Made by a program: the position numbers and the translations under genes | The notes under the pieces: generated by a model | Database searches by the model: none | What the model saw: only the letters and a program-made list of their open reading frames with translations | What the model was told of the DNA's origin: nothing | Assembly (NCBI GenBank): GCA_964488395.1 | Contig: CAZAVT010000002.1 | Span: forward strand, 1-30,970 | Direction of reading: 5' to 3' | DNA: 30,970 nt | Source: an uncultured Burkholderiaceae bacterium | GTDB lineage: Bacteria; Pseudomonadota; Gammaproteobacteria; Burkholderiales; Burkholderiaceae_E | Shown here: positions 2,898-29,027 of the stretch, piece by piece | Position numbering within the stretch: position 1 is the first letter of the stretch | How the letters are laid out: each line of letters opens with the position of its first letter

Positions 2898-2901
2898 TCC
2901 T

Positions 2902-11686: not shown

Positions 11687-11832
11687 CGTGAACCGATCCA
11701 GGCTGGAAAGCTTCTCCGGTATTGCGCCCACGCGAACCGACCTATTTCGTCCTCCAAACGCGTCAGTGTAAAGGGAGTCGGCCGCCCGCGTCCTGCCGGG
11801 CCAGGATAGGCGAGAAGCCCGCAGCAGGGGGC

Positions 11833-12987
11833 TCAACGCCGAAGCAGGCGTCGACTGATCGCACTCGCTGCGACGCCGGCCACCAGCCCCCAGAACGCGC
11901 TGCCAATCCCGAAGAGCGTGAGTCCCGCCGCCGTGCAGAGAAACGTGAGCAACGCCGCATCGCGTTCAGCCGGCTCCTCGAAGGCGCTGACCAAACTGCC
12001 CGAGAGCGTCCCCAGGAGGGCGATTCCCGCCATCGCGGCCAGGAATGCCGGCGGCAGCGCCGCGAAGGCGGTGACGACCGTCAAACCCAGGAGCCCGGTC
12101 ACCGCATAAAAGCCACCTGCCCAGACGGCTGCCCGATAACGCCGCTCCTTGACCGGGTCAGCCTCGGGCGACATGCAGATCGCCGCGGTGATGGCCGCAA
12201 GGTTGTATGCAAATCCGCCAAACGGGGCGAGCACGAGCCCGACAAACCCGGTCACGGCAATCGGCGGCGAAGCGGGCGTGTCATAGCCATTGGCGCGCAG
12301 CACGGCAAGCCCCGGGACATTCTGCGACGCCATGGTGACCAAAAAAAGGGGCAGACCGATACCGATGAGATGGCTCCCGGTGAAGGTCGGCGTGGTCCAG
12401 ATCGGCCGTGCGACGTCGAACACGATCACACTGCTGCGGACTTCGCCCTGGAAGGCACAGAACAGGATACCGATGGCAAGACTCGCGAGCGCCGCAAAAT
12501 TTGGCTGCCAGCGCCGACCCAGGACCCAAACCCCCAGCATCAGCAGCGCCAGCCCCAGCGCATCGGCGAGCGTCGAAAAGAGCTGCAGCCCGAACCTCAG
12601 CAACACGCCGGCGAGCATCGCCGCCGCAACGGCTCGGGGCACCCAGCGAAGCAGAACCTCGATCCATCCAAGGAGCCCGAACAGCGTGAGCAGGAGCGAC
12701 GAAAACAGGAACACCCCGATCGCATCGCTGAGCGCTACGCCGGGCAGCGCCGTTGCAAGGAGCGCCGCGCCCGCAGTGGACCAGGCCGTGAGCACGGGCG
12801 CGCGGTAGTACCAGGAGAGACCGATCGACGTCACAGCCATCCCGATCCCGAGCGCCCACAACCAGGAGCCCACTTGAGCGATTGAAGCGCCCGCCGCGTT
12901 CGCCGCTTGAACGACGATCACCGCGGAGCTGGCATAGCCCACCAGCACCGCGATGAAGCCCGCGCTGACATGTGCCCCGCGAATCAT
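11833..12987 (-). CDS. benE: BenE family benzoate/H+ symporter
   Basis: SAGFIAVLVGYASS, APVLTAWSTAGAALL, LPLFLVTMASQNVPG.AVLRANGY, NLAAITAAIC, ALLTFLCTAAG and IGSAFWG. GAGGA RBS before ATG 12987. Confidence 0.93.
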   Translation of the reverse strand: MIRGAHVSAGFIAVLVGYASSAVIVVQAANAAGASIAQVGSWLWALGIGMAVTSIGLSWYYRAPVLTAWSTAGAALLATALPGVALSDAIGVFLFSSLLLTLFGLLGWIEVLLRWVPRAVAAAMLAGVLLRFGLQLFSTLADALGLALLMLGVWVLGRRWQPNFAALASLAIGILFCAFQGEVRSSVIVFDVARPIWTTPTFTGSHLIGIGLPLFLVTMASQNVPGLAVLRANGYDTPASPPIAVTGFVGLVLAPFGGFAYNLAAITAAICMSPEADPVKERRYRAAVWAGGFYAVTGLLGLTVVTAFAALPPAFLAAMAGIALLGTLSGSLVSAFEEPAERDAALLTFLCTAAGLTLFGIGSAFWGLVAGVAASAISRRLLRR

Positions 12988-12998
12988 GGGCGAGGTCC

Positions 12999-14048
12999 TC
13001 ACTCCATCTTGATCCCAGTGGCGATCAGCCGTGCCCACTTATCGGCTTCGGCGCGCATGAGCTGCGCAAACTCGGCGGGTGTCTTGCTGTAAGTTGGGTC
13101 GGCGCCCCAAGTCTTCCAGCGCTCGAGGACCTCATCGCTTCGCATGATCTGCACGATTTCGCGATGAACTCGCGCGATGATCGCTTCGGACGTCCCGGCC
13201 GGCGCGACGAATCCGTACCAAGGGGTGACCTCGTAACCCCTGAGACCGCCCTCGGCCACGCTGGGCAACTCGGGCGCACTGGCGGTGCGTTCCAGGCTGG
13301 TCACGCCGATCGCCTTCACCTTGCCGCTTGCCGCGCGGGGCAACGCGATCGGAGCCCCGGCAAACACGAAATGCACCCGACCAGCAGTGAGGTCATTGAG
13401 CGCCTCGTTGATGCCCCGATACGGCACGTGCACGGACTGGAGTCCAGCCATCTGATTGAAGAGGGCCGCCGCCAGGTGGGTCAGACTGCCATTGCCTGAA
13501 GTCCCGTAATTGACCGCTCCAGGCCGGTTGGCGATGTACGCGGCAAGCTCGCGTGAACTCGCAACGGGCAGCTCGGGCGAGGTCAACAGCACCAGCGGAA
13601 AACTGCCAACCAGCGAGACCGGCGCGAAATCACGCAAGTTGTCCTCGGGCGACCGACTGCCCTGTCCCGAAGCAATGAGCATCGATGAGGCCGCGAGCAG
13701 AAAGGTGTAGCCGTCCGATGGCGATTTGGCCACCAGATTGGCGCCGATCGTGAGGCTCGCACCAGGCTTGTTGTCGATCACGACGGCCTGCCCGAGCGGG
13801 CCGGCAAGCTTGGTTGCGACAAAGCGGCCCAGCAGATCGGCCGGCCCGCCCGGTGTATACGGAATCACCAAGCGAATCGCCCGATCCGGGTAGGTGGACT
13901 GGCCGAGCGCGCAAAGCGGCGCGGTCAGCGTCAGGCCGGTCGCGAGTGAGGCGGCCAGGAGGCCTGCCCTGCAGGACGCGCCAAAGGGCGGGCGGGCCCA
14001 GTCCCTAACCCGCACCTTCAGAGCCGCGCGAGGGAGTCGATCCTTCAT
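12999..14048 (-). CDS. Bug/TctC substrate-binding protein (Bug 3)
   Basis: YPDRAIRLVIPYTPGGPAD, IDNKPGA, DGYT, HVPYRG and KWARLI. Confidence 0.94.
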   Translation of the reverse strand: MKDRLPRAALKVRVRDWARPPFGASCRAGLLAASLATGLTLTAPLCALGQSTYPDRAIRLVIPYTPGGPADLLGRFVATKLAGPLGQAVVIDNKPGASLTIGANLVAKSPSDGYTFLLAASSMLIASGQGSRSPEDNLRDFAPVSLVGSFPLVLLTSPELPVASSRELAAYIANRPGAVNYGTSGNGSLTHLAAALFNQMAGLQSVHVPYRGINEALNDLTAGRVHFVFAGAPIALPRAASGKVKAIGVTSLERTASAPELPSVAEGGLRGYEVTPWYGFVAPAGTSEAIIARVHREIVQIMRSDEVLERWKTWGADPTYSKTPAEFAQLMRAEADKWARLIATGIKME

Positions 14049-14059
14049 ACCCACCCCCT

Positions 14060-14887
14060 TCAGTCGGCCGTCGAAAAAAGCCGCGACACGCCGTAAAGCT
14101 CAGTCAATTCCTTGACTCGATACCGCGGCGGCATCGCATGATAGTAGCCTCGGGTACAGCGGCTGATGCCTAACTGCCGACGGAGGTCGGCGAGTACCTC
14201 GGCCGTCTTGAGGGTCGCGGCCACCCCATCGAGGATCGGCACATCGTCCACCCTCGAAATGCCCGCCCGCTGCAGCATCACGCTCATAGGCGCCTCGCCT
14301 GGAATGATCACGTCAGCCCCCTGCGCGATCAGCGCGCGGGCATTTTCAAAAAAGATCTCGAGGATGTCCTGCGGCGCCTGCCGGGTCGGCAAGACCGAGG
14401 AGGACGGGAACCCCACATAGCGCAGCCCCGCGCAGCGGCCCGTGAGGCCGTGAATCGCGATATTGCTCTCGAGCATTGGGATCATCTCGCGGATGAAGAG
14501 CAGCACGCCAAAGCGGGTGCCAAGGTGGACCGCCATGTTCATGGCGCATTCGCCGTAACCCACGACCGGAATCGAGACCAGGCTCTTGATCTCGCGTAGG
14601 CCGGGTTCGGGTAAGGTCGCGAGCGCAAAAGCATCGTAGCCCTGTTCTTCAGCAAGGATCGCCGCATAGGCGAACTGATGCGAGTGAATGGACTGAAAGT
14701 AGGCATAACCGACATCAGTGCTCGGGCCATCACCCTTGCGGTGGCCGTGAGTGCCCGGATGCGTACCATGTACGACCACCTCGGTGTCGTCACGAACCAC
14801 CTTCCGAATGTGCTCGCGCAGCGACGCGTCGTACTCAGGCACGCGGGCCAAGGTGGTAAAGCTCTGATGCCAGATGCGGGTCTTCAT
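14060..14887 (-). CDS. Asp/Glu/hydantoin racemase superfamily protein lacking both canonical catalytic Cys
   Basis: GYDAFALATLPEPGL...IPVVGYGE, FGVL, GADVIIPGEAPM and VPILDGVAATLKTAE align with the hydantoin racemase pattern (ACxGDPG, GCAGM, PVIDGV). Confidence 0.82.
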   Translation of the reverse strand: MKTRIWHQSFTTLARVPEYDASLREHIRKVVRDDTEVVVHGTHPGTHGHRKGDGPSTDVGYAYFQSIHSHQFAYAAILAEEQGYDAFALATLPEPGLREIKSLVSIPVVGYGECAMNMAVHLGTRFGVLLFIREMIPMLESNIAIHGLTGRCAGLRYVGFPSSSVLPTRQAPQDILEIFFENARALIAQGADVIIPGEAPMSVMLQRAGISRVDDVPILDGVAATLKTAEVLADLRRQLGISRCTRGYYHAMPPRYRVKELTELYGVSRLFSTAD

Positions 14888-14916
14888 GAAAATTCCTCAG
14901 GGTCTGCAAAAGAGAT

Positions 14917-16311
14917 TCAGGCGAGTCGTCGCAGGCCACGAGACAGTAGGCCGATGCGGGCCTGCTCGGTCGCTGGAACGGGAACCGGGACCTCAGCCGC
15001 CGGCAGCAATCGCTCGACCACCGACGCGCCGTCGTGCTCAGCACCCGCAAATGCAAGGCAGTCGGCCGCCTTGCGGCGCAATTCCTCATCGGTGAGAGGG
15101 TCGGGCGCATCGCCGTGGGCGACCTGAACACGGCGCGCAAGGCGCCGACCGTCCCTCAGATACACCGTCACCTCGCTCCAGCGCGGCAGAACCGGACCCT
15201 CGGCTTCGGTGAGCGAGATGATCCGCATCAGGGCCATCACCTCAGCGCGTCCGAAGGCCTGCGGCCGATAGGATTCAAGATCCACCCGCCCGTCGATCAA
15301 GCCCAAGGCCAGTGTGTAGGGCAGGCTGAACTTGCCCTGCAGGCTGTCGAGCGGCTCGCCCCCGATGAGCGCCTCGCGGCCGCGCGCGCTCGTGAGGACT
15401 TCGATGCGCTCGACCTCTCCCACCGCGAACCCGTCATCGACGCGCAGTGCGAGGAGTGCGTCCAGTGCGCGGTGGATCGCGTAGCAACACGGATATTTCT
15501 TGAGATCGATACCGACCCGCTCGATCGCAAGCGGTCGTTCGCCCAAGCGCGCGAGCGCCGGTGCCAGGTCTTCGCCCGCGGCATACAAACGGGTGAATCC
15601 ATAGGGGCCATCGATCGCGCCGGGCGCTGATGTAAAGCCCAAGGCGGCCAGCCGGACGCTCCTCACCGCCGCCGCGGCACAGATGCCGGCCTGAAACGAC
15701 TTGGCCATCGCGCCAAAGTTTTCCCGCGTGCCCGCTGCCTGTGCGACCGCCAGACCCAGCGCATGAATCGTCTGCGCCTCATCAAGATCGAGCAGTACCG
15801 CGCAACCGAGCGTCACCCCGATCACGCCCAGAGCCGAGGTCGAGTGCCAGCCCCGGCTGTAGTGATCGAGCGCGAGCACGGGCGCCATCGCAGCCATGAC
15901 CTCGTAGCCGGCAAGCCAGGCCTGCGGGTAGCGATGCGACAGCGTCGGTTGCGCGCAGGCGAGCGCCTGCAGCGCCGGCACCAAGGTCGCGCTGACATGC
16001 GCACGCATTGGCGTCAGCACATCGTCATAGTCGAACACATGGGCGGCCAAGGCGTTGAACCAGGCGGCCTCCTCGACAGGCAGGCGCGTCCCGTCGCCCC
16101 AGATGTGGGCCGCGCCATGACCGGCCACCTCGTCGAGGTGTCGGCGCGCGATCGCAACCACTGGATCATCGAGTGCCGCGACCGCGACCGCCCAGGTATC
16201 GAGCGCCGCCCGCCAGGCAAAGCGCCGTTCGATTGCACTCGGTGTCAGCCGGCCAAAACGCCGGGCAAACGCGGCCAGTTGGCTTGATGCACCCTCACCC
16301 GCGCGGGACAT
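14917..16311 (-). CDS. MmgE/PrpD family protein (IDS-epimerase / cis-aconitate-decarboxylase-like branch)
   Basis: NALAAHVFDYDD..H, GYEV, HYSRGWHST, KSFQAG, KKYPCC and KFSLPY. ATG 16311 lies 8 nt after the Bug 4 stop. Confidence 0.92.
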   Translation of the reverse strand: MSRAGEGASSQLAAFARRFGRLTPSAIERRFAWRAALDTWAVAVAALDDPVVAIARRHLDEVAGHGAAHIWGDGTRLPVEEAAWFNALAAHVFDYDDVLTPMRAHVSATLVPALQALACAQPTLSHRYPQAWLAGYEVMAAMAPVLALDHYSRGWHSTSALGVIGVTLGCAVLLDLDEAQTIHALGLAVAQAAGTRENFGAMAKSFQAGICAAAAVRSVRLAALGFTSAPGAIDGPYGFTRLYAAGEDLAPALARLGERPLAIERVGIDLKKYPCCYAIHRALDALLALRVDDGFAVGEVERIEVLTSARGREALIGGEPLDSLQGKFSLPYTLALGLIDGRVDLESYRPQAFGRAEVMALMRIISLTEAEGPVLPRWSEVTVYLRDGRRLARRVQVAHGDAPDPLTDEELRRKAADCLAFAGAEHDGASVVERLLPAAEVPVPVPATEQARIGLLSRGLRRLA

Positions 16312-16319
16312 CGTTTCGC

Positions 16320-17342
16320 TCACTCGGCCTTGATGCCAGCCGTTGCGATCACGCCCGCCCATCGGTCGTGCTCGCTGCGGATATAGTCGGCGAGCGCAGC
16401 GGGTGTGGCGCTGGTCATCGGCTCCATGCCCATCGAATCGAGTCGCTTGACGAAGTCGGCCGAATGGACCGCCGCCACGACCGCCTCGTGAAGCCGCCGG
16501 GCGACAGCCTCGGGCATCCTCGCGGGCCCAAGGAGCGCATACCAATTGCCCAGCGTCATGCCCGGCAAGCCCTGTTCGGCCATGGTCGGCACCTCCGGCA
16601 TGCCGGGATGTCGGGTCGGGCTGGTGATCGCAATGGCCCGAAGCCTCCCCTCGCGTACCGGCGCGCTCAAGGCCGCATAGTCAACCGCCATGGCGTGAAC
16701 CCGACCGGCGACCAGATCGGTGATGCCGGGAGCGGCGCCCTTGTAGGGCACGAACCGGACATCGACGCCAGCCACCGTTTTGAACAGTTCGAACACGAGA
16801 CGGGTCGAACCGCCCGTGCCAACGGTCACAAAGTCGAGCTGGCCTGGACGCTCGCGGGCCTGCGCGACGAGCTCGGTGACGCTCCCGACCTTGAGTCCTG
16901 GGCCCACCGCAAACAGGACCGGGCTACTCGCCACAGTGCTGATGCCTGTGAAATCGGTGAGCGGACTGTAGGGCACCTTGGCGTAAGTCAGCGCATTCAG
17001 CACCAGCGACGACAGGCCACCGGCAAGCAGCGTGTAACCATCGGCGGGCGCTTTGGCGACTAGATCCGCCGCGATGATGGCATTGGCCCCCGGTCGGTTC
17101 TCGACCAGCATCTGGACTTTTAGCGCTTCGCCCAGGCTCGCCGCGAGCTGGCGCGCCAGGATATCGTTGGCACCCCCCGGTGGATAACCGACGATCAGGC
17201 GAATCGGGCGGTTGGGATAGCTTTCAGCGAGCGCTGCTGGCGTGGCAAAAACCGCCAAGACCGACGCGAGGACGACAAGCAGTGCGCGTTGCAGCGCGCC
17301 CGGCCATGCGGCGTGCAGGAAGCGATCGATGGGAACGGGCAT
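16320..17342 (-). CDS. Bug/TctC substrate-binding protein (Bug 4)
   Basis: YPNRPIRLIVGYPPGGAND, VENRPGAN, DGYTLL, VPYKG and RWAGVIATAGIKAE. GGAG RBS before ATG 17342. Confidence 0.95.
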   Translation of the reverse strand: MPVPIDRFLHAAWPGALQRALLVVLASVLAVFATPAALAESYPNRPIRLIVGYPPGGANDILARQLAASLGEALKVQMLVENRPGANAIIAADLVAKAPADGYTLLAGGLSSLVLNALTYAKVPYSPLTDFTGISTVASSPVLFAVGPGLKVGSVTELVAQARERPGQLDFVTVGTGGSTRLVFELFKTVAGVDVRFVPYKGAAPGITDLVAGRVHAMAVDYAALSAPVREGRLRAIAITSPTRHPGMPEVPTMAEQGLPGMTLGNWYALLGPARMPEAVARRLHEAVVAAVHSADFVKRLDSMGMEPMTSATPAALADYIRSEHDRWAGVIATAGIKAE

Positions 17343-17380
17343 GGCAGACTCCACAAGAGGCGCAGGGCCGCACGACCGAT

Positions 17381-18163
17381 CTAGTCGCACCAGCTGCCGC
17401 CGTTGATATCCAGGATCTCCCCGGTGATGAAGCCAGCCGCCTCCCCGGCCAGGAACGCCACGGCATCGGCGACCTCGTCGGGGCGACCCAAGCGGCCCAC
17501 CGGGATCTGACTCTTTAGGCTCTCCGGAAAGACGTTCAACAGACGCGGGTTAGACCCGATCGGACCGGGCGCCACCGCGTTGACGGTGATGCCGCGGTGG
17601 GCGTTTTCCTTGGCGAGATAGAGCGTTAGCGCATGTACACCGGCCTTGGACGCCCCGTAGGCGAGATTGACGGCCCGTTTCTGCTCGGCGGGGTCGAGCC
17701 AGGGCCGGGGATTACCGCCATTTTTCGCCAGCAATGAACCAATATTGATGATCCGGCCATAGCCCCGTTCCCGCATCCCGGGAAGCACCGTCTGGCAGCA
17801 GATGAACACGCTGGTGAGATTGGCTCGCAGCACCCGATGCCATTCCGCCTCGGTCACATCCTCGGAGGCGCCGTGGGAGCCCACGCCCGCGAGATTGATC
17901 AAGATGTCAGGGGCCGAGAGCTCGCGCTCGCAGCGGGCGAGGAGTTGGGCCACCGCCGAGCTGTCGGCCACATCGGCCACGGCAACCATCGCCCGCCGAC
18001 CCGCTGCCCGCACCTGCTCGGCGGGCTCGCTGGCATCGATCAGATCGACGAGGCACAGATCGGCACCCTCGGCCGCAAAGCGCGCCGAGATCGCTCGGCC
18101 AAGCCCACCGGCTGCACCGGTCAGGAGGGCGGTCCGTCCTTGGAGCCGCATCGTCGTGCTCAT
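17381..18163 (-). CDS. Classical SDR oxidoreductase (FabG-like) with active-site loop insertion
   Basis: TGAAGGLG, NLAG, RIINIGS, YGASK, NAVAPG and TGEILDINGG. Confidence 0.93.
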   Translation of the reverse strand: MSTTMRLQGRTALLTGAAGGLGRAISARFAAEGADLCLVDLIDASEPAEQVRAAGRRAMVAVADVADSSAVAQLLARCERELSAPDILINLAGVGSHGASEDVTEAEWHRVLRANLTSVFICCQTVLPGMRERGYGRIINIGSLLAKNGGNPRPWLDPAEQKRAVNLAYGASKAGVHALTLYLAKENAHRGITVNAVAPGPIGSNPRLLNVFPESLKSQIPVGRLGRPDEVADAVAFLAGEAAGFITGEILDINGGSWCD

Positions 18164-19146
18164 TCGACCTTGATGCTGGCGGACTTAACGACCTTGGCCC
18201 ATTTCTCGAGCTCGTTCCGGTAGAACTCGCCGAACTGGGCTGCCGTGGTGCCCAGAGGCTCAGCGCCATTGGTCCGGAAGGCCTGCTGCACCTTGGGGTC
18301 GCTCAATGCCTTGATGGTCTCGGACTCGAGCCGACCCACGATGGCCGCTGGCGTTCCGGCCGGCGCAAACAGCCCGAACCAGGCCTGCGCATCGAAGCCA
18401 GGCACGCCAGCCTCGACCATTGTTGGGATCTCGGGAGCAATCGAGGCTCGGGTCGTCGTACTGACCGCCAGCCCGCGCAGCTTCCCGCTGGTGGAAAGTG
18501 GCCCCGTGGTGATCACGTTGTCGAAGGTGAGCGGTACCCGACCACCCACCACGTCGGTCATCGCCGGCGCAGTCCCCTTGTAGGGAATCGACTGCATGCG
18601 GATGCCGGTGAGGCTGCTGAAATACTCCATGAAGAGATGCGAACCCGAACCCGATCCAGCCGTCGCGTACTGCAAGGGATCCTTGGCGGCCTTGGCGGCG
18701 GCGATCAGGTCGGCAACGGTCTTGATCGGCGAGGACGGATGGACCACCAGCATGAAAGGGGTCGAGGCGATCTGACTGATCGGTAGCAGATCGGTCAGCG
18801 GGTTGAAGGGCAAATTCGGGTACAGCGACGGATTGACCGACAGCGAAATCGTACCGAGCAGGATCGTGTAACCGTCGGGGGCGGACTTCGCGACGTGATC
18901 GGAGCCGATGTTGCTCGCGGCACCCGGGCGGTTCTCAACAACGACCGACTGCCCCATCTGCTCGCTCAGCCGGGCTGCAATCGCGCGGCCCATGATGTCG
19001 CTCGCGCCGCCAGCGGTGAAGCCGACGATGAGCCGAACCGGCTTGGCTGGATAGGGCTGAGCCAGGGCTGCGGACGGTCCAAAGGTGGCCGCAGCCGCAA
19101 GGGCTGCTGCGAACACCGGGGCAAGCCATGCGTGAAGGGGGGTCAT
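18160..19146 (-). CDS. Bug/TctC substrate-binding protein (Bug 5)
   Basis: YPAKPVRLIVGFTAGGASD, VENRPGAA, DGYT, IPYKG and KWAKVVKSASIKVE. CAGGAG RBS. Stop overlaps the SDR ATG. Confidence 0.95.
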   Translation of the reverse strand: MTPLHAWLAPVFAAALAAAATFGPSAALAQPYPAKPVRLIVGFTAGGASDIMGRAIAARLSEQMGQSVVVENRPGAASNIGSDHVAKSAPDGYTILLGTISLSVNPSLYPNLPFNPLTDLLPISQIASTPFMLVVHPSSPIKTVADLIAAAKAAKDPLQYATAGSGSGSHLFMEYFSSLTGIRMQSIPYKGTAPAMTDVVGGRVPLTFDNVITTGPLSTSGKLRGLAVSTTTRASIAPEIPTMVEAGVPGFDAQAWFGLFAPAGTPAAIVGRLESETIKALSDPKVQQAFRTNGAEPLGTTAAQFGEFYRNELEKWAKVVKSASIKVE

Positions 19147-19214
19147 CGAATGCTCCTGGTCATACCGTTGATGGGCGATGGGGGGTCGTGGCATTGGGAA
19201 GTTGCGGGTCGCCT

Positions 19215-20660
19215 TCAGGGCTGGCGCGCTGCGTCGAGTCCTGCGATCCGACCGAAGACGGTGCCCTTGAGCACCGAGGTCGCACCGGTGTAGTGGCCGT
19301 AGTAGAGGCCCTGGGTCTCGCCGACCGCATAGAGCCCCGGGATCGGATCACCTTGCTGGCTGATGACTTCGCCGCGGCAGCCTGTCTTGAGTCCACCGAA
19401 GGTGAACACGATCGAGGAGACGATCGGATAGGCCTTGTACGGAGGGCGGTCAAGCGGACGAGCCCAATGGCTCTTCACAGGCCACAACCCGCGCGTCGAC
19501 AGCCCGTCGAGCGCCCGTGGGTTGAAGCCCGCCTCAGGTGGACAGGCACGGTTGTAGTCGGCGACGGTCGCCGCAAGCAGGTCAGCAGGCAGACCGAGCT
19601 CGGCGGCGAGGGCCTCGATGGAGGGCGCCTCGATGGCTGGTTGCTCGGTGCGGATTGCAACGGGCAGATTGGGCACCTCGGCCAGCCGGCCATCGAGAAT
19701 CACCCAGGCGATGCCGCCCGGCTGGGCAAAGATCTCACGGGTCACGGCCTCGTAGGTCTCGTCGGTATGGCCCGGCCCCTCATCGACGAAGCGCCGGCCA
19801 TGCCGATTGACCAGAATGCCGTAGGGATAGACATACATCGACGCCCCCGGTCTGGCCGAGCGCGGATCCATCGGCGAGGCATGCCAGCTGCCGAAATCAC
19901 CGCAGGGCGCAGCACCGATATCGAGCGCCATGCGGATCCCCTCGCCCTTGTTGTAGTGGCAGCCGTTGGACATCATCTTCAGGTGCAGCGCGCGCGGACC
20001 CAGGTAACGATTCATCATCTCGGCATTGCCCTGAAATCCGCCGCAGGCGAGGATGACCGAGCGCCCCCTGTACTCAACCGGGCGATGGCCGGGCGCGAGC
20101 GCGCGCACCCCGCACACCCGCCCATCCTCGATCAGCAAGGACTGGGCTGCGGTCTCGTAGACGATCTGACCGCCGAGACGCTCAAAGGAAGCGGCGAGCG
20201 AGTCGACCAGCGCCCGACCGCCACCACTGGGCTGGATGCGCGGCTGGGCCGAGGTCGGGAAAGGGACCTCGAGCGGAATGAAACGCACGCCGTGGGTCTT
20301 GAGCCAGGCCAGGGTCGGCGGCGCTTCGCTCGCCAGCGTGGCCACCACATGGGGATCGACCATGCTGAGCGCCCGCAGGATTCTCGGCTGCTCCCCGTGC
20401 GGCCGTGCGGAGTCAGCAACCAGGCCAGGATCGAGGTAGCCACCGGCGTTGACGGCGAAATGCTCCTCGAAGTCCTCGCTGATCTCGGCTTCGGATTTCA
20501 TCCGCATCCAGGCACCGGTATGCCGGGTATTGCCCCCGCGCTCCTCATGGGGTGCACGCTCGAGCACGCAAACCCGCGCACCGGCCTCGGCGGCCGACAC
20601 GGCTGCCGACAGGCCCGCACCGCCGCAGCCCACCACGATCACATCATACGAATCGACCAT
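19215..20660 (-). CDS. FAD-dependent oxidoreductase, tricarballylate dehydrogenase (TcuA/CobZ)-like
   Basis: DVIVVGCGGAGLSAA, RGGNT, LACGGF.GN, GEGIRMALDIGA, WH, GILVN..G.RFVDEG, FTFGGL, PGLYAVGE and GTVFGRIAG. No covalent-FAD His motif of SdhA/FrdA. Start is ATG 20660 or TTG 20669. Confidence 0.85.
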   Translation of the reverse strand: MVDSYDVIVVGCGGAGLSAAVSAAEAGARVCVLERAPHEERGGNTRHTGAWMRMKSEAEISEDFEEHFAVNAGGYLDPGLVADSARPHGEQPRILRALSMVDPHVVATLASEAPPTLAWLKTHGVRFIPLEVPFPTSAQPRIQPSGGGRALVDSLAASFERLGGQIVYETAAQSLLIEDGRVCGVRALAPGHRPVEYRGRSVILACGGFQGNAEMMNRYLGPRALHLKMMSNGCHYNKGEGIRMALDIGAAPCGDFGSWHASPMDPRSARPGASMYVYPYGILVNRHGRRFVDEGPGHTDETYEAVTREIFAQPGGIAWVILDGRLAEVPNLPVAIRTEQPAIEAPSIEALAAELGLPADLLAATVADYNRACPPEAGFNPRALDGLSTRGLWPVKSHWARPLDRPPYKAYPIVSSIVFTFGGLKTGCRGEVISQQGDPIPGLYAVGETQGLYYGHYTGATSVLKGTVFGRIAGLDAARQP

Positions 20661-20695
20661 CTGGATCAAGTCTCCCGTAACACGCTGAAGGAGGG

Positions 20696-23473
20696 CTACG
20701 CCTGGCTGCGGCTGGGCTCGGCTGCTGCGCCAAACAGGCGTAGAACCCGACTCGGTATGCCGCCGCCTTGCATCAGGTTGCGCTCAGCTCGGGTCAAGAG
20801 CGCCGGATGCACTGAAAATTCGATCGTCGTCCCATCGGGAGACAGCGCGCTGACCGTCACCGCGCTACCCGTTTCGATCGCCGCCTCAATCCCCTGCAGG
20901 CTGAATCGTTCATGCCCCTTGAGACCCAGTGACGCCCATCCCTGACCCGGGTCAAACAGGAGCGGCAGCACGCCCATGGCGATGAGATTGGCGCGATGGA
21001 TACGCTCGAAGGACTCGGCGATCACTGCAGCCACGCCCAGGAGCAAAGTACATTTGGCGGCCCAATCGCGACTGCTGCCACTGCCGTAATCGCGCCCGGC
21101 CAGCACCAGCGTCGGAACGCCGGCTGCGCGATAGCGCATGGCCGCCTCAAAGACGCTCATCACCGCGCCGCTCGGGTGATGCAGCGTCTGGCCGCCCTCG
21201 GTGCCCGGGAGCAAGAGATTACGCAGCCTCAGGTTGGCAAATGCCGCCCGGCTCATCACCCGGTAGTTGCCTCGACGACCGACGTAACTGTTGAAATCCG
21301 CCTGCCGGACGCCGAGCGAGACCAAGTAGCGCCCGGCGGCCGAGTCGAGCGGAATCTCCCCGCCCGGCGAGATATGGTCGGTGGTCACCGAATCGCCGAG
21401 CAGCACCAGCGCGTGCGACCGGTCGATCCGGTCAGGGTCAGACCTCGCGGCCACCGGCTGAGCAAGCACCTGATCGGCGAGTGCTTCACTCCAGGGCTGA
21501 GGGCTTTGGACCAGTGATCGATCGACGACAACAGGCGCCGATACCGAGCCGAAGAAGGGCGGCTCGACAAGATAGCTCGACTGCGGGTCCCAAGCGTAGC
21601 GAGGCCCAGTGGGCGACTCGAGCGCCGCCCATAGTGTCGTGTCAGCGCCGCGCTCGTAGACCCGCCTGAAACGGGCAGGGTCCTCGGCAAGCGGCAGCAG
21701 CGCCGTGATCTCGGCGGGTTCGGGTAACAGATCGCGGGCCAGCACCGGGCGGCCGTCGCGATCGATGCCGATGGGGTCCGTCTCCAGATCCAGATCGATC
21801 CGGCCAGCGAGCGCGCAGATCACCACCCAATGCGGCGCGCCGATATAGTTGGCCCGGATCAGCTTGTGGATCCGACCTTCGAAATTGCGGTTACCCGAGA
21901 TGACCGCAGCCACCACGGCCTGCGAGGCCTCGATGGCCTCGGCAACCCCCGGGTTGAGCGGACCCGATTTGCCCCCACACGTGGTGCATCCGTGGCCGAT
22001 AAGACCGAAGCCGATCGCCTCGAGAGGCTCGAGCAGTCCAGCTGCGGCCAGATAGTCGGCGACCACCCGTGAGCCCGGCGCCATCGAGGTCTTGACCCAA
22101 GGGGCCGGCCGCAGGCCTCGCTCGACCGCTCGACGGGCCGTGAGGCCGGCCGCGAGCATCACGGCAGGATTGGAGGTATTGGTGCAGGACGTGATCGCAG
22201 CTAGCACCACCGCACCGTCGGTGAGCGCGGGCGCCGAGCGATCCGACCCCAGCCCCATGCGCGCGTAACCCCCCACATCGACCGGGGCCGCGAGGCGGCG
22301 CCTGAAATCCGCGCCGACCACCGCGATATCCATGCGGTCCTGGGGCCGGCGCGGACCAGCAAGGCTGGGTCGGGCAGCCGACACATCGATCTCGATCACC
22401 CGGCTGTAGCGTGGCAGGGCCTCGCCGGCTGCTCTGAAAAAGCCGTTCGCGCGCCCGTAGCGCTCGACTCTCTCGATCAGCGCGGGCTCCCGTCCGGTCG
22501 CCCGTAAATAGTCGAGCGTTCGGGCGTCAACCGGGAAAAAACCACAGGTTGCCCCATACTCGGGACACATGTTGGCAAGCGTCGCACGCTCGGCGACCGG
22601 CATCACATCGACCGCTGGGCCAACGAATTCGAGCGCGCAGGCGGTCACGCCCTCGCGCCGCAGCCGCTCGGTAACAAGCAGCACCAGATCGGTACTGACC
22701 GCGCCCGGGCCGATGTCGCCCGAGAGTCGCACCCCGACCACCTGGGGCATGGGAAAGCCGTAAGGTTCGCCGAGCAAGGCGGCCTCGGCATCCAAACCGC
22801 CCACCCCCCAGCCGAGCACGCCCAAAGCATTCACCATGGTGGTATGCGAGTCGCAACCCAGCACGAATTCGGGGCACCACCACGTCTGCCCCGCGTGGCT
22901 TAGCTCAGCGACGACCGAAGCAATCCGCTCGATGTGAATCTGGTGAATGATGCCACTGCCGGGCGGGTGGATGCGCAACCCCCTGAAGGCGCCATGCGCC
23001 CATTTGATGAAGCGATAGCGTTCCTGGTTGCGTTTGAATTCGCGAGCAAGATTGAGATCGATCGCATCGGCTCGAGCCCAGTGGTCGACCTGCAGCGAAT
23101 GATCGACGATCAGATCCACCGGCAAGAGTGCATCGGCGCGGGCAGGATCAACGCCGCGCCGCGCAAGCGCATCGCGCAAGGCCGCCAGGTCCTGTAAGAG
23201 CGGCAGTCCGCTCGAATCGGGCAGCACCACCCGGGTCACCTGCAGGGCGATGTCGCGGCCTTCATGGGCCTGCCAGTCGATGACCCGATCGATTTCCTCG
23301 TCGGCCACCGCGCCAGGTCCGCCCCAGGCGCGACTACGAAGCAGGTTCTCGAGCATGACCCGAATGCAATACGGATAGTCGTGAATCGAACGACCCCGAT
23401 CACGCAGGGCTGCCCCGATATCGCACCAGCGCTTCTCTGGCGCCTTGTCGTGCAGCCGGTCGGGCTGCGTCAT
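20696..23473 (-). CDS. acnA: AcnA-family [4Fe-4S] aconitate hydratase, divergent variant
   Basis: DHS, HQ, DSHT, ANMCPEYGAT, AAITSCTNTSNP, GCTTC, SGNRNFEGRIH, TTDHISP, RRGN, GSSRDWAAK and ESFERIHR.NL. GGAGG RBS. The symbol is family-level only because substrate-binding motifs deviate. Confidence 0.9.
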   Translation of the reverse strand: MTQPDRLHDKAPEKRWCDIGAALRDRGRSIHDYPYCIRVMLENLLRSRAWGGPGAVADEEIDRVIDWQAHEGRDIALQVTRVVLPDSSGLPLLQDLAALRDALARRGVDPARADALLPVDLIVDHSLQVDHWARADAIDLNLAREFKRNQERYRFIKWAHGAFRGLRIHPPGSGIIHQIHIERIASVVAELSHAGQTWWCPEFVLGCDSHTTMVNALGVLGWGVGGLDAEAALLGEPYGFPMPQVVGVRLSGDIGPGAVSTDLVLLVTERLRREGVTACALEFVGPAVDVMPVAERATLANMCPEYGATCGFFPVDARTLDYLRATGREPALIERVERYGRANGFFRAAGEALPRYSRVIEIDVSAARPSLAGPRRPQDRMDIAVVGADFRRRLAAPVDVGGYARMGLGSDRSAPALTDGAVVLAAITSCTNTSNPAVMLAAGLTARRAVERGLRPAPWVKTSMAPGSRVVADYLAAAGLLEPLEAIGFGLIGHGCTTCGGKSGPLNPGVAEAIEASQAVVAAVISGNRNFEGRIHKLIRANYIGAPHWVVICALAGRIDLDLETDPIGIDRDGRPVLARDLLPEPAEITALLPLAEDPARFRRVYERGADTTLWAALESPTGPRYAWDPQSSYLVEPPFFGSVSAPVVVDRSLVQSPQPWSEALADQVLAQPVAARSDPDRIDRSHALVLLGDSVTTDHISPGGEIPLDSAAGRYLVSLGVRQADFNSYVGRRGNYRVMSRAAFANLRLRNLLLPGTEGGQTLHHPSGAVMSVFEAAMRYRAAGVPTLVLAGRDYGSGSSRDWAAKCTLLLGVAAVIAESFERIHRANLIAMGVLPLLFDPGQGWASLGLKGHERFSLQGIEAAIETGSAVTVSALSPDGTTIEFSVHPALLTRAERNLMQGGGIPSRVLRLFGAAAEPSRSQA

Positions 23474-23527
23474 GATGTCCTCCCCGGCCCGGTCCTAACC
23501 CCGAGCTTTGCCTGCCTCACGACGTCG

Positions 23528-23557
23528 AGTCTAGCGAGCCGATCCGCGAAGCGTCAA
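23528..23557 (-). promoter_or_regulatory. Putative sigma70 promoter for the aconitase operon
   Basis: Minus strand TTGACG (23557-23552), 18-nt spacer, TAGACT (23533-23528), 54 nt upstream of ATG 23473. Confidence 0.6.
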
Positions 23558-23562
23558 CACTT
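23549..23562. promoter_or_regulatory. Putative GntR operator 1 (AAGCGT-CA-ACACTT)
   Basis: Near-palindrome with one mismatch. It matches operator 2 and overlaps the -35 hexamer of the minus-strand promoter. Confidence 0.55.
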
Positions 23563-23601
23563 TTAAGGAAAATGGGCCATCAAGCCTTGACTGGACGGGG
23601 T

Positions 23602-23617
23602 TTAGTGTTGACACTAA
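23602..23617. promoter_or_regulatory. Putative GntR operator 2 (TTAGTGT-TG-ACACTAA)
   Basis: Perfect 7-bp inverted repeat with a 2-nt spacer in an AT-rich intergenic region, ending 5 nt before the GntR ATG. Confidence 0.65.
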
Positions 23618-23622
23618 CACCC

Positions 23623-24384
23623 ATGGACGCAGCCTTGTTCCCGGATCGTCATGCGGCACGCGACGTGCCAGGCACGCTCGCTGACAGCGTCTTCGACCAC
23701 CTGCTGCAGGCGATCCAGTCGGGTCGACTCGCGTCCGGTGAGGTGCTGAACGAAGTCGCGCTCGCCCAGGAACTCGGCGTTTCCAGGGGGCCCGTGCGCG
23801 AGGCCATCCGGCGACTGCAGGGCGTGCAACTGGTCGAGCGCGAAGCCTACCTGCGCGCGCGGGTCGTCGAACTGAACGCGGCAACGGCGCGCGAGCTTTT
23901 CGAAATGCGTGAGGCACTCGAGGGCATGGCCTGTCGGCTGGCCGCCCAACGAATGTCGGAAAGCGAGATCGATTCGCTCGAGCGTGATCTCGAAGCAGCC
24001 CGCGCCGCGCGTCTGAAGGACCAGGGCAGGCGCCGATCGCCGGTGACCGGCTTCGATTTTCACGAGCGGATCGCCCTGGCAAGCGGCAATGCCCGGATCC
24101 ACGCGACGCTCACCGGCGACCTGCATCATCTGCTATCGCTCTACCGGGTTCGCTCCGGATTGGTCCCCCATCGCAAGGACAATGCCTTTGCAGAACACTG
24201 GCAGGTCGTTCGGGCAATCCGGGCGCGCGATGGCGAACTCGCTGAATCGCTCATGCGTTCGCACGTCAGGCGCGCCGCCGAGCAGCTGTTTCGCGAACTG
24301 CCCGATGGCCCGCGTGACCGGCCGCTCGAGCGGCCGCGACCCGCCACCGAATCCCAGACCGTGACGGAGAGACCCCCACCGTGA
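23623..24384 (+). CDS. GntR family transcriptional regulator, FadR/FCD subfamily
   Basis: TLADSVFDHL..AI.SG.L..G..LNEVALAQELGVSRGPVREAIRRL wHTH, and an FCD domain with DFHERIA..SGN, EHWQVV.AI and MRSHV. Start is ATG 23623 (23572 is an alternative). Confidence 0.93.
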   Translation: MDAALFPDRHAARDVPGTLADSVFDHLLQAIQSGRLASGEVLNEVALAQELGVSRGPVREAIRRLQGVQLVEREAYLRARVVELNAATARELFEMREALEGMACRLAAQRMSESEIDSLERDLEAARAARLKDQGRRRSPVTGFDFHERIALASGNARIHATLTGDLHHLLSLYRVRSGLVPHRKDNAFAEHWQVVRAIRARDGELAESLMRSHVRRAAEQLFRELPDGPRDRPLERPRPATESQTVTERPPP

Positions 24385-25283
24385 AGCCCACCGCCCCCTC
24401 CGCCGCCGCCCGCTTGCGCGCGCTCCTTCAAAGCGACGAACTGATCGTCGCGCCCGGTGTCTTTGACGGCTACAGCGCAAGGCTGGTCGAAGCCGCGGGG
24501 TATCGAACTGCCGCCACCAGCGGTGCCGCCGTTTCGAATTCCCTGCTGGGGGTTCCCGACATCGGCGTGATGGGGCTGAACGAGAACGTCACCCACTGCC
24601 GTAACCTGGCCCGGTCGATTTCAATCCCGCTTACCGCGGATGCCGACACCGGCTACGGCAATCCCGTCAATGTCTGGCACACCGTGCGGCTGTTCGAGGA
24701 GGCGGGTGTTGCGGGGATCAACATCGAGGATCAGGTCAGTCCCAAGCGCTGCGGCCACATGCCCGGCAAGCAGGTGGTCGATGACGCCGAGATGGTGCGC
24801 AAGATCGAGGCCGCCTGCATGGCGCGCAGAGACGACGACTTCGTGATCATCGCCCGTACCGACGCGCTGGCGGTCGAGGGCATCGAGGGCGCCGCCCGGC
24901 GGGCGCGGCTCTACGCCCAGGCTGGTGCCGACCTGATCTTCCCGGATGCCGTACGCACCGAGGACGAGATCGCCCGTATCGTCGAGGCCGCCGGGATTCC
25001 CGTGACGATCAATATGGGTTTTGGCATCCGCTCGCGACCAACCACGCCGCTCATCCCATTGCCCCGGCTGAAGGCGCTCGGCGTGCGCCGAATCAGCCTG
25101 CCGCGCATGCTGCCGGGTGCCGCGATCCGTGCGATGAAGGAGGCACTTCGCCTGATGCAGCAGGTGATCGCGACCGGCGAACCAATCGACCGACCCGATC
25201 TGATCGCAGGCATCGACGAGATCACCGAGCTGATGGACTACGACGGCATGCGCGAACGCGAGGCTCAACTACTTAAGCTCTGA
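24381..25283 (+). CDS. Isocitrate lyase / PEP mutase superfamily lyase (PrpB / 2,3-dimethylmalate lyase / CPEP mutase-like)
   Basis: APGVFD..SARL, TSGA, ADADTGYG, NIEDQ..PKRCGH and IIARTDA. GTG start overlaps the GntR stop (GTGA). Confidence 0.93.
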   Translation: MKPTAPSAAARLRALLQSDELIVAPGVFDGYSARLVEAAGYRTAATSGAAVSNSLLGVPDIGVMGLNENVTHCRNLARSISIPLTADADTGYGNPVNVWHTVRLFEEAGVAGINIEDQVSPKRCGHMPGKQVVDDAEMVRKIEAACMARRDDDFVIIARTDALAVEGIEGAARRARLYAQAGADLIFPDAVRTEDEIARIVEAAGIPVTINMGFGIRSRPTTPLIPLPRLKALGVRRISLPRMLPGAAIRAMKEALRLMQQVIATGEPIDRPDLIAGIDEITELMDYDGMREREAQLLKL

Positions 25284-25337
25284 TCGCGCGTTTGCCTCTT
25301 CACTTCCCCCCACGACACCGCAAGGAACCTGACGACA

Positions 25338-25913
25338 ATGAGCGAATTCCGTATCGACCCCGCCACTTCGGCCCTGGTGCTGATCGACCTGCAGGTTGGC
25401 ATCGTCGCGATGAACGTGGCGCCGCGCCCTTCCTCAGAGGTGGTGGCAAACGCGCGTCGACTGGCCGCGCGATTTCGGGCGGCACACGCCACCGTGGTAC
25501 TGGTCAACGTCGCCAATCTGCCCGACGGCCGAGATGCGCTCGCACCCACGCTCGATCAACCGCCGCCTGCTGGCAAGCGCCCCGAGAACTGGGCCCAGTT
25601 CGTGCCCGAACTCGATCAGCAGACCAGCGATCTGGTGATCACCAAGCGGCAATGGGGCGCGTTCTATGGCACCGAACTCGACCTGCAACTTCGCCGCCGC
25701 GGGATTCGCACGATCGTGCTCGCCGGCATCTCGACCAACGTCGGCGTGGAGTCGACCGCGCGGGATGCCTTCGAGCGCGGCTTCGACCAGATCCTGGTCG
25801 AAGATGCAATGGCCAGTCCCTCGGCTGAAGCTCACGTGGCAACCGTGAAATTCACGTTTCCGAGGATCGGTCGCATCCGCACCACCGAGGCGGTGCTGAC
25901 GGCACTCGGCTGA
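25338..25913 (+). CDS. Isochorismatase-family protein, YecD-like
   Basis: ALVLIDLQ.GI, ITKRQWGAFYGTELDLQLRRRGI.TIVLAGISTNVGVESTAR. Gly sits at the usual nucleophilic Cys position. Confidence 0.9.
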   Translation: MSEFRIDPATSALVLIDLQVGIVAMNVAPRPSSEVVANARRLAARFRAAHATVVLVNVANLPDGRDALAPTLDQPPPAGKRPENWAQFVPELDQQTSDLVITKRQWGAFYGTELDLQLRRRGIRTIVLAGISTNVGVESTARDAFERGFDQILVEDAMASPSAEAHVATVKFTFPRIGRIRTTEAVLTALG

Positions 25914-25935: not shown

Positions 25936-26844
25936 TTAGGCGAACCGATCCGGTTGGGGCTGGTCGATCCCCGGGGCGAGCGGCTGCTGCGCCGGCTCAG
26001 GGCCGAGAACGAGGTCCTCGCTCGCCGTCGGGTTCAGGTCGAACGGGACCGCCCGGGCGAGCGCCATCCAAACCGCAAAAGGCAGTGTCTTTGACGCACG
26101 ACGTGGCGCTGGACGCGCCACCCGGAATCGCCCCGCCTCCTCGAGCAGCACACCGCACTCCGGCGGGAGCTCGGAAGGATCGGCGATCGGACGCCCGGCC
26201 TTGTCAGCGCCCAGCACGTACCAGCACTCGTCGGCAAGGGCGAAATAGGCGGCACGCTTGTCGGGCCGTCTGAGCTCGCCCAGCAGATCGCTGCGGTGGC
26301 TCTTGATCTCGTCGATACGGCTTGAGAGGCGGCCTGGGTCGGACGTGTTGCGAATCGAGAAAACGTCCGGTCGGCATAATCGCCAACGGACATTGGACAC
26401 CGGCTCGTCGGCGACTGGACCCAGCAGGTCGTCGTCGGCCAGGTTGGGCTCGGACGTCCCATCGGGCAAGGCAGCATCCTGTATGGGCGCACGCAGGCAT
26501 AGGCCAGTCCAGACAATCCGGCCCTGCGCCTGCAGGCTCGTGGCGACCCTCCTGACCAGCCCCTCGTGCGGATCGAAAGCGCTCCGGTTGATCTCGAGCG
26601 AACGCTTGAGCCAGACCAGCCCGAGATCGGTCAGCCGAAGGGTCTCTGCGCCGGCGCTACCGGCGGGCGGGACGACGCGCTCGATGAGACCCGCTGCGAG
26701 AAGATCGATCTCAATGGCGTCCAGACTGGGCCATCCCGCGGAGCGCCACAGAGCCCGCAAGCGCCGCAAATGCGCGCGACGGGGGGCCCAGTCCGTCGAG
26801 CCGCTCAGAAGCTGAGATTGGCTGCCTTGACGAGCGTGGTCCAC
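25936..26844 (-). CDS. Hypothetical protein: wHTH-like N-terminus plus MmcB-like PD-(D/E)XK nuclease domain
   Basis: RPDVFS...DEIKSHRSDLLGE...KRAAY...ADECWYV...ELPPECGVL...VARPAP. Start is uncertain because GTG 26844 overlaps the Bug 6 3' end by 40 nt. Confidence 0.7.
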   Translation of the reverse strand: MDHARQGSQSQLLSGSTDWAPRRAHLRRLRALWRSAGWPSLDAIEIDLLAAGLIERVVPPAGSAGAETLRLTDLGLVWLKRSLEINRSAFDPHEGLVRRVATSLQAQGRIVWTGLCLRAPIQDAALPDGTSEPNLADDDLLGPVADEPVSNVRWRLCRPDVFSIRNTSDPGRLSSRIDEIKSHRSDLLGELRRPDKRAAYFALADECWYVLGADKAGRPIADPSELPPECGVLLEEAGRFRVARPAPRRASKTLPFAVWMALARAVPFDLNPTASEDLVLGPEPAQQPLAPGIDQPQPDRFA

Positions 26845-28842: not shown

Positions 28843-29027
28843 GCCATTGCTCCGGTTGGGTGGGGGCCAGTCAAGCGCTCTGGTCTGGGGGGCGAATCTG
28901 TAGCGGCATCGTACTTGGGCGCTGCCCGAGATTCAAACCAGCTGCTCTCCCCTAGCGAGCAAAATCGTTTACGCTCGAATCGCAATGCTGTGCGGATAGC
29001 CTTCGCCCACCCAAACCGAGACCCGAG

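Follow-up and report, generated by a model that had tools for sequence, protein, structure and literature searches.

The 30,970-nucleotide window analyzed here (the whole stretch of DNA under study) lies on contig C2 of a 72%-complete metagenome-assembled genome (MAG) of a freshwater bacterium of the Burkholderiaceae. It carries two divergent arms of genes that together encode a GntR/FCD regulator, an aconitase-family hydratase, a TcuA-like flavoprotein, a short-chain dehydrogenase/reductase (SDR), a MmgE/PrpD-family protein (PrpD-like protein), a racemase-like protein, a C-C lyase of the isocitrate lyase (ICL)/PEP-mutase family, a YecD-like hydrolase and three periplasmic receptors of the TctC type (Bug1, Bug2 and Bug3). 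We found that this gene set is kept together across genera, that its enzymes are distinct from those of the tcu and prp systems and carry conserved motifs of their own, and that its most conserved part appears to be a trio composed of the flavoprotein, the SDR and the racemase-like protein. We tentatively favor the explanation that the genes constitute a single catabolic regulon, repressed by the GntR/FCD protein, by which an organic acid, most likely of the substituted succinate type, is degraded.

Conservation of the gene set and its core

The window proteins were mapped by tblastn onto loci that were found via the racemase-like protein (L-numbers denote loci carrying homologues, C-numbers contigs of the MAG itself), and the loci in which the latter protein shows at least 58% identity are referred to as the close clade. 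The close clade keeps the series GntR, lyase, SDR, TcuA-like flavoprotein, TctC, PrpD-like protein, racemase-like protein and TctC, often with the aconitase added; the PrpD-like gene is present in 6 of the 10 close-clade loci. Bug2 orthologues (48-80% identity) hold the same position within the clade, Bug1 (52-77%) follows the racemase-like gene, and Bug3 homologues (50-60%) recur in many loci that contain the trio. Every component is found in one place in Achromobacter sp. HZ34, and Ramlibacter agri possesses all of them except the aconitase, PrpD-like and YecD-like genes. Most components also occur in the Burkholderiales MAG loci L011, L025-L032, L135 and L146, and the nearest relatives, L135 and L009 (both from one lake MAG) and L146, are collinear with the window. 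In L011, L025, L026 and L105 the whole series, from GntR to the last TctC, lies on one strand; what is divided over two arms in the window appears in these relatives as a single operon. An earlier annotation by a model that saw only the DNA (the sequence-only reading) had proposed a pathway for these genes and had named a lack of co-occurrence in other genomes as a reason to abandon it. Considering the fact that the genes do co-occur in Achromobacter, Ramlibacter and MAGs, the proposal is not refuted on this ground, and the set is in all likelihood not a chance neighborhood.

The racemase-like protein is encoded at at least 536 stretches of the public species-representative genome set. Neighbors were counted in the 58 loci that extend 5 kb or more to either side, taking genes within 8 kb of the racemase-like gene and TcuA-like orthologues at an identity of at least 50%. 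A TcuA-like orthologue was present in 51 of the 58 loci, a matching SDR in 40 and the full trio in 39; the YecD-like gene was found in 23, the ICL-type lyase in only 10, the PrpD-like gene in only 6 and the aconitase in only 5. The sequence-only reading had placed the conserved backbone in the succession of desaturase, aconitase and lyase, and in this respect it has to be given up: going by the counts, the conserved core is the TcuA-like flavoprotein, the insertion-bearing SDR and the racemase-fold protein that lacks both catalytic cysteines (Cys), and the aconitase, lyase and PrpD-like genes are clade-specific add-ons. Since these three are missing from most loci with the trio, the trio must also be able to feed other downstream routes.

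The trio ranges over Beta-, Alpha- and Gammaproteobacteria and Actinobacteria. The MAG itself holds a second copy on contig C24 (around 270-6100; L131), preceded by a sulfatase gene, with identities of 56% (TcuA-like), 51% (SDR) and 46% (racemase-like), which suggests that one genome contains related modules with different substrates. Genes for both the alpha and the beta subunit of electron-transfer flavoprotein (ETF) adjoin the flavoproteins in 15-17 loci, e.g. in Pseudomonas taeanensis, and the Pseudomonas trio is joined to ETF alpha/beta and two further paralogous flavoproteins. In the actinobacterial loci L013, L014 and L015 (Streptomyces, Thermopolyspora) the trio stands in a same-strand run with two HsaA-like flavin monooxygenases, an extradiol dioxygenase and an alpha/beta hydrolase; the run also holds a lyase of the dimethylmalate lyase (DMML) type, two extra flavoproteins and an MHS-family transporter. 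The hydratase and lyase, too, are found on their own. On contig C104 (98-6663; L132) of the MAG, an independent hydratase-lyase-receptor module is made up of an IclR regulator, an AcnA-like gene with the PDSSG motif described below (seemingly split into two frames in this MAG), a VE..TP-type lyase of the ICL family and a TctC gene. Since the trio and the hydratase-lyase set each recur without the other, the cluster in the window gives the impression of two such modules coupled together.

The enzymes compared with the tcu and prp systems

The TcuA-like flavoprotein fails the TcuA equivalog model TIGR02485 (220.9 bits against a cut-off of 372.55) and passes NF006130 (PRK08274) marginally (385.6 against 369). 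The latter model is broader than TcuA, as a non-orthologous Pseudomonas paralogue scores 535 on it. A true tcuA, scoring 643.6 bits on TIGR02485, is located elsewhere in the genome, on contig C435 (921-2563; L106/L128). Behind it a TcuB-like reading frame, the only such start in the genome, runs for ~25 residues before the contig ends. The window protein shares 31% identity with this true TcuA, of which it is a paralogue, and its own orthologues (52-69% identity) adjoin the racemase-like gene across phyla. It is nearer to TcuA and to fumarate and urocanate reductases than to ketosteroid or 4-oxocyclohexanecarboxylate desaturases. The carboxylate clamp of fumarate reductase (equivalents of His504 and Arg545) was considered as a discriminator and rejected: it is missing in the TcuA-like protein and in true TcuA alike, and therefore does not separate them. 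The tcuRABC locus of Salmonella enterica resembles the cluster in having a FAD_binding_2 flavoprotein of the TcuA/PRK08274 group, the product of which could in principle be hydrated by an aconitase, within a locus dedicated to carboxylate uptake. It differs in that the window lacks TcuB, TcuC and the LysR-type TcuR; the partners here are the SDR and the Cys-less racemase-fold protein, and related loci have ETF in the place of TcuB.

The aconitase passes three AcnA models (NF006757, 1064 bits against 686; NF009520, 1059 against 905; TIGR01341, 999 against 945) and fails the AcnD model TIGR02333 (661 against 1420). Aligned to human IRP1 and E. coli AcnA, it keeps the three Cys ligands of the Fe-S cluster and the catalytic DH, DSH, NRNFEGR and SSRDW elements, and it deviates at two places, with PDSSG for the canonical QDFTG and CGGKSG for the canonical CIGNSG. 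The glutamine of QDFTG corresponds to Gln72 of mitochondrial aconitase, which contacts the substrate. PDSSG is found in every cluster-linked aconitase, and CGGKSG likewise occurs throughout the close clade. E. coli AcnA has both QDFTG and CIGN(S/A)G. In a further sample of 21 AcnA-type sequences, drawn from Burkholderiales and other phyla, QDFTG occurs in 17 and CGGKSG in none, and most have CIGN(S/A)G. The true AcnD proteins of L124-L126 carry CHDILG and CNGMSG, unlike the window aconitase. The loss of the column of IRP1 Arg699 (E. coli 'YLQGRGV'), in which the cluster aconitases show L, Q, A, N or H, was dropped as a distinguishing mark, because canonical Burkholderiales AcnA has H, K, N or Q there and the column is thus uninformative; PDSSG and CGGKSG are the differences that remain. 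An insertion of ~26 amino acids at 650-680 is unique to the window copy.

The lyase fails the PrpB equivalog TIGR02317 (245.7 against 354.4), and its best matches are still PrpB. The catalytic KRCGH (PKRCGH) is kept and conserved in the orthologues, and a four-residue insertion gives NMGFGIRSRPTTP, here called the IRSRP loop, where PrpB has NITEFGATP. The NMGFGIRSRPTTP loop is kept in lyase orthologues (74-90% identity) and in the paralogues on contigs C25 and C5 of the same genome; more distant lyases linked to the trio carry the DMML-type VEGGKTP instead. The PrpD-like protein reaches 35 bits on the PrpD model NF042438, against a cut-off of 950, and has as its best solved relatives the iminodisuccinate (IDS) epimerase 2hp0 (8e-57) and bacterial IRG1.

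Three known systems are worth comparing at this point. Operons for the 2-methylcitrate cycle (prpBCDE, prpBC-acnD-prpF) share with the cluster a KRCGH-bearing ICL-family lyase, an aconitase-family enzyme and a MmgE/PrpD protein. Here, PrpC, PrpE and PrpF are absent, the PrpB, PrpD and AcnD equivalog cut-offs are missed, the lyase has the inserted IRSRP loop, and PDSSG is neither the QDFTG of AcnA nor the CHDILG of AcnD. In the lower part of the nicotinate fermentation of Eubacterium barkeri, dimethylmaleate hydratase is followed by 2,3-dimethylmalate lyase, which is the same hydratase-lyase logic: a hydratase of the aconitase family works on a substituted maleate, and the substituted malate is then split by a lyase of the ICL/PEP-mutase family. 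The window differs in having a hydratase of the monomeric AcnA type instead of the LeuCD type and a lyase loop other than the DMML-type NMVEGGKTP (seen only in the more distant lyases linked to the trio), as well as in its aerobic host and in the steps upstream. Finally, the IDS epimerase of Agrobacterium (2hp0) provides a precedent for a MmgE/PrpD protein that edits the stereocentres of substituted succinates; the cluster differs in having no C-N lyase, and the PrpD-like gene is dispensable in its nearest relative, L009.

The racemase-like protein has a two-domain Asp/Glu racemase fold according to its AlphaFold2 model (pLDDT 83.6), with 3qvk and 5lg5 as top Foldseek matches (TM 0.68-0.78, E ~1e-14) and allantoin racemase as the nearest fold (TM 0.70-0.78); protein atlas names for the family are limited to a generic 'racemase family'. 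Its Thr91 and Glu198 align on Cys79 and Cys184 of the Klebsiella pneumoniae allantoin racemase KpAllR, which form the catalytic pair conserved across the superfamily (PMC12661438). The protein thus shares the fold of the allantoin/hydantoin racemases and differs from them in that both catalytic Cys are replaced, by Thr and Glu. Across phyla, Glu198 and His7, His26, His40 and His68 are invariant and Thr91 is nearly so (alignment A1). A second, more distant racemase-fold family (25-35% identity) also lacks both Cys and carries LGNIADPG and IPAxG motifs (alignment A2); it occurs in L010, L012, L023, L024, L040, L042, L060 and others, usually beside a TctC gene near the trio. Genes for arylmalonate decarboxylase (AMDase) likewise adjoin receptor genes of tripartite tricarboxylate transporters in Betaproteobacteria (PMC4996985). 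Unlike the window protein, AMDase retains one Cys, and the window has neither a hydantoinase nor a mandelate-racemase-type partner.

Between its catalytic Ser and Tyr, the SDR carries an insertion of 11 residues (GGNxRPWLDxxEQ) that is kept in trio-linked SDRs of Achromobacter, Ramlibacter, Pseudomonas, a metagenome contig from the European Nucleotide Archive (L024) and the second trio on C24. Among solved structures, the YecD-like protein is best matched by E. coli YecD (1j2r); the nucleophilic Cys is lacking, with a Gly at the amidase Cys position. The earlier claims that aconitase, lyase, racemase and SDR all deviate from canonical motifs, and that the locus is not simply tcuABC or the 2-methylcitrate cycle, are therefore both corroborated: the deviating motifs are conserved, the true tcuA lies elsewhere and the TIGR02485, PrpB, PrpD and AcnD models fail. 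A search of full-text literature returned nothing on the gene set or on the aconitase residues, only work on AMDase neighborhoods and on OpaE, which was used for comparison, and neither the literature searched nor any curated NCBIfam equivalog accounts for the trio, the PDSSG aconitase or the IRSRP lyase. Both the families of the enzymes and the logic of the operon are of known kinds, which does not hold for the subfamilies.

Control region and layout of the locus

The control region between the arms contains a 12-mer, AGTGTTGAC(A/G)CT, in two inverted copies (23550-23561 and 23604-23615). Only one sigma-70-like site (23557 to 23528) faces the aconitase gene, and a copy of the 12-mer overlaps it; one copy directly precedes the ATG at 23624, the likely start of the GntR gene. 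Across the window, matches to the 12-mer with up to three mismatches are no more frequent than expected by chance. The exact 10-base core GTGTTGACAC lies just ahead of the GntR gene in six orthologous loci (L011, L025, L030, L031 and L032/L105), and in the spacer between aconitase and GntR genes of Achromobacter there are two direct exact copies and one reversed variant. The palindromic AGTGT-TG-ACACT repeats are kept in six loci and the regulator has both the GntR winged helix and the FCD domain, in agreement with the FadR type; in L023, L025, L030 and L105 the orthologous operons begin with a GntR/FCD gene. We take GTGTTGACAC to be a conserved putative FadR-type operator, and the paired operators that had been proposed between the arms can thus be retained.

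The ORFs (open reading frames) of the window were identified by Pfam and NCBIfam profile searches and the spacing was taken from the ORF table. All eleven genes named in the sequence-only reading were recovered in this way, in two divergent and tightly packed arms (Table 1). The junctions vary from overlaps of 4 nt (SDR/Bug3, GntR/lyase) to around 68 nt (from the TcuA-like stop to the ATG at 19146). The unit had been given the extent 12999-25913; its named genes stand and its end does not, as a BenE-family carrier and a sensor kinase follow on the minus strand. The BenE gene overlaps or abuts the Bug1 stop and the kinase overlaps the BenE stop by 4 nt. In the two nearest relatives whose sequence reaches this region, L009 and L146, BenE is kept at the operon end (69% and 74% identity) with kinase homologues behind it (49% and 45%), and both genes probably belong to the unit. 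Consequently, of the claim that three Bug proteins import the substrate, the three TctC genes remain, and their standing as sole transport candidates is lost to the BenE carrier, which is conserved in the operon of this lineage. The top solved relative of Bug3 is a terephthalate-binding protein, a match that leaves the ligand unsettled, as all TctC structures score about equally.

Table 1. Coordinates of the cluster and of the genes that follow its minus-strand arm, with the supporting searches (bit scores against model cut-offs where two values are given).
Feature	Position	Strand	Support
7TMR-DISM sensor histidine kinase, possible further member	9749-11836	minus	Pfam 7TMR-DISMED2, 7TM, HATPase_c
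BenE-family carboxylate/H+ symporter	11833-13038	minus	Pfam BenE 446 bits; TIGR00843 407 vs 203
Bug1, TctC receptor	12999-14054	minus	Pfam TctC 192 bits
Racemase-like protein (allantoin/hydantoin-racemase fold)	14060-14887	minus	Pfam Asp_Glu_race
MmgE/PrpD-family protein, IDS-epimerase/IRG1 branch	14917-16311	minus	Pfam MmgE_PrpD_N, _C
Bug2, TctC receptor	16320-17390	minus	Pfam TctC 195 bits
SDR dehydrogenase with 11-residue insertion	17381-18163	minus	Pfam adh_short; below every NCBIfam cut-off
Bug3, TctC periplasmic solute receptor	18160-19194	minus	Pfam TctC 249 bits
TcuA-like FAD flavoprotein (FAD_binding_2; desaturase/dehydrogenase)	19215-20669	minus	Pfam/NCBIfam
AcnA-family Fe-S hydratase, 'PDSSG' subtype, 925 aa	20696-23473	minus	Pfam/NCBIfam
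Divergent control region: two inverted putative operator copies and sigma-70-like site	23528-23615	no strand	Sequence scan
GntR/FCD (FadR-type) regulator	23624-24384	plus	Pfam GntR and FCD; ORF open from 23572
ICL/PEP-mutase-family C-C lyase, 'IRSRP-loop' subtype	24381-25283	plus	Pfam PEP_mutase 191 bits
YecD-type isochorismatase-family hydrolase	25338-25913	plus	NF008517 227.6 vs 195

As had been noted before, prpC, prpE, prpF, tcuB and tcuC are absent from the main ORFs of the window that were scanned, three of which have no Pfam match. TctA and TctB are not among the scanned window ORFs either, the rest of the 72%-complete genome not having been searched for them. Outside the cluster, a small acid-related group at 2902-6242 comprises a GntR/UTRA regulator, a TctC gene, a HpcH/HpaI aldolase and a Cys-bearing hydrolase of the isochorismatase/nicotinamidase type, and MFS_1 is the sole Pfam match (E 2.8e-15) of an ORF at 8395-9738 on the minus strand. 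A 302-residue ORF at 25936-26844 (minus strand) lacks a Pfam or NCBIfam match; homologues at 56% identity adjoin the Bug4 gene in the relative L135. The same lack of matches holds for a 269-residue ORF at 28839-29648 (minus strand), which is probably not a gene because it overlaps a clear acyl-CoA dehydrogenase gene (29028-30200, plus strand). DNA nearly identical to the window is present in drinking-water, river and lake metagenomes from nine studies.

Candidate substrates and the proposed route

Within the regulon that we tentatively favor, the most likely substrate is a substituted succinate, i.e. a di- or polycarboxylate with stereocentres next to the carboxyls. A tricarboxylate, as proposed in the sequence-only reading, is not supported, given an aconitase without the canonical QDFTG. 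The route we infer would begin with uptake by the TctC receptors, the TctAB membrane parts presumably being encoded elsewhere, and possibly by BenE. The Cys-less racemase-fold protein could interconvert stereoisomers or shift a double bond, with Glu198 as single base, and the IDS-epimerase-like protein of the PrpD family, where present, may share in this editing. The TcuA-like flavoprotein would remove two hydrogens next to a carboxylate, with ETF or quinone, and not TcuB, receiving the electrons; ETF, which is present in this genome, is the probable acceptor. The PDSSG-type Fe-S hydratase would then add water to the resulting substituted maleate or fumarate, the SDR may oxidize a hydroxyl on the substrate or an intermediate, and the KRCGH lyase would cleave the resulting 2-hydroxy acid into a 2-oxo acid and a shorter acid. 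Activities of this kind are known separately: TcuA acts on carboxymethyl-succinate, IDS epimerase on N-substituted succinates, and ICL-family lyases cleave substituted malates.

Several observations weigh against this explanation. The lyase, aconitase and PrpD-like genes accompany the racemase-like gene in a minority of the loci counted, as given above. The nearest relative, L009, lacks the PrpD-like gene, and L146 keeps the aconitase, TcuA-like, Bug, SDR and BenE genes without a racemase-like gene in the cluster. Since Burkholderiales are rich in orphan operons linked to Bug genes (this genome has around 187 Bug-like places), some of the adjacency may be incidental. In several loci of Comamonadaceae/Limnohabitans and other Burkholderiales MAGs the trio is accompanied by a CoA ligase, a hot-dog hydratase, a metallo-beta-lactamase-type (MBL) hydrolase and an HMGL-like lyase. 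Ring compounds are hinted at by the C24 trio, with a FAD_binding_3 aromatic-type hydroxylase after it, by the Streptomyces trio with its two HsaA-like monooxygenases, extradiol dioxygenase and meta-cleavage-type hydrolase, and by BenE-family carriers, which point to rings and not to open-chain succinates. The parts assigned to the SDR and the YecD-like hydrolase are weak, the latter being given no step at all, and no RNA runs holding near-identical DNA were found.

A wider formulation, which we consider possible and more doubtful than the regulon itself, is that the trio represents a widespread and undescribed CoA-independent module that attacks branched or alicyclic carboxylic acids. In this lineage, a 2,3-substituted succinate skeleton would be cleaved or ring-opened by a re-specialized Fe-S hydratase together with a new ICL-type lyase, to both of which the module is coupled, and the racemase fold would work by a new single-base (Glu) mechanism. 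Among the candidate substrates would be acids of freshwater organic matter that are terpene-derived or 'carboxyl-rich alicyclic'.

The signs of ring chemistry can also be read more narrowly, with the trio acting on an alicyclic or hydroaromatic carboxylic acid: a ring hydroxyl would be oxidized, desaturation would occur next to the carbonyl or carboxyl, and epimerization or tautomerization would follow. Here the PDSSG hydratase would hydrate the ring and the ICL-type lyase open it, and in other lineages a phenol would arise, to be hydroxylated and cleaved. The benzoate-type BenE carrier as a conserved operon member, the terephthalate-binding relative of Bug3, the hydroxylase behind the C24 trio and the Streptomyces gene set would all fit, as would the two or three paralogous flavoproteins in the loci of Pseudomonas (with ETF), Paraburkholderia and Streptomyces, which multiple desaturations would need. 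However, the flavoprotein is nearer to TcuA and to fumarate/urocanate reductases than to the ring desaturases, the terephthalate binder is matched about equally by all TctC proteins, ring-cleavage genes are absent from the main ORFs scanned in the window, and the Streptomyces and C24 neighbors may belong to separate operons. On balance we regard this, the main alternative, as unlikely, with the proviso that a cycloalkane-1,2-dicarboxylate (a 2,3-bridged succinate) would fit both the succinate and the alicyclic readings.

The modular build of the cluster allows for a mosaic, in a Bug-rich genome, of two or three independent modules that merely lie side by side: one would be the trio, another would pair the PDSSG hydratase with the ICL-type lyase, and a third the PrpD-like protein with a Bug receptor. 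Indeed, most loci have only the trio, hydratase, lyase and TctC are found by themselves on C104, the presence of PrpD-like and racemase-like genes varies among close relatives, and the gene order in the window is unlike that of L011 or L105. We nevertheless judge it quite unlikely, considering that in the close clade the modules stay together through rearrangements and across genera (Achromobacter, Ramlibacter and several MAGs), that they lie under one GntR, with a conserved putative operator between the arms, and that the junctions overlap or are very short.

Very unlikely, in our view, is a cyclic substrate that contains nitrogen (a carboxylated hydantoin, cyclic imide or lactam), on the ring of which the racemase-fold and isochorismatase-family proteins would act while the rest degrade the substituted succinate that is released. 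The nearest relatives of the racemase-like fold are allantoin/hydantoin racemases and the isochorismatase family includes many amidases, but both racemase Cys and the amidase Cys nucleophile of the YecD-like protein are missing, and no hydantoinase, carbamoylase or amidohydrolase was found among the main ORFs scanned in the window. An ordinary locus for tricarballylate/aconitate or the 2-methylcitrate cycle, as implied by automatic annotation ('TcuA', 'AcnA', 'methylisocitrate lyase-like', 'PrpD family') and by the passing of NF006130 (TcuA) and three AcnA models and the PrpB matches of the lyase, is hardly credible and was already disfavored, given the true tcuA-tcuB pair elsewhere in the genome, the failure of the TIGR02485, PrpB, PrpD and AcnD models, the prp and tcu genes missing from the main ORFs scanned in the window and the differing substrate-region motifs of aconitase and lyase.

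If the regulon that we favor is real, hundreds of genomes contain several genes with wrong automatic labels (TcuA, AcnA or "racemase") that would belong instead to an unassigned catabolic module. Since Achromobacter sp. HZ34 and Ramlibacter agri are cultured and carry all or most of the cluster, the question is directly testable. The identity of the substrate would give a function to the recurrent trio and to a distinct aconitase subtype, would reveal the role of a racemase fold without cysteines, and would supply ligands for some of the many orphan Bug/TctC receptors of the Burkholderiales. Possibly, it might also account for the use of a class of dissolved organic acids by bacteria of freshwater and drinking water.

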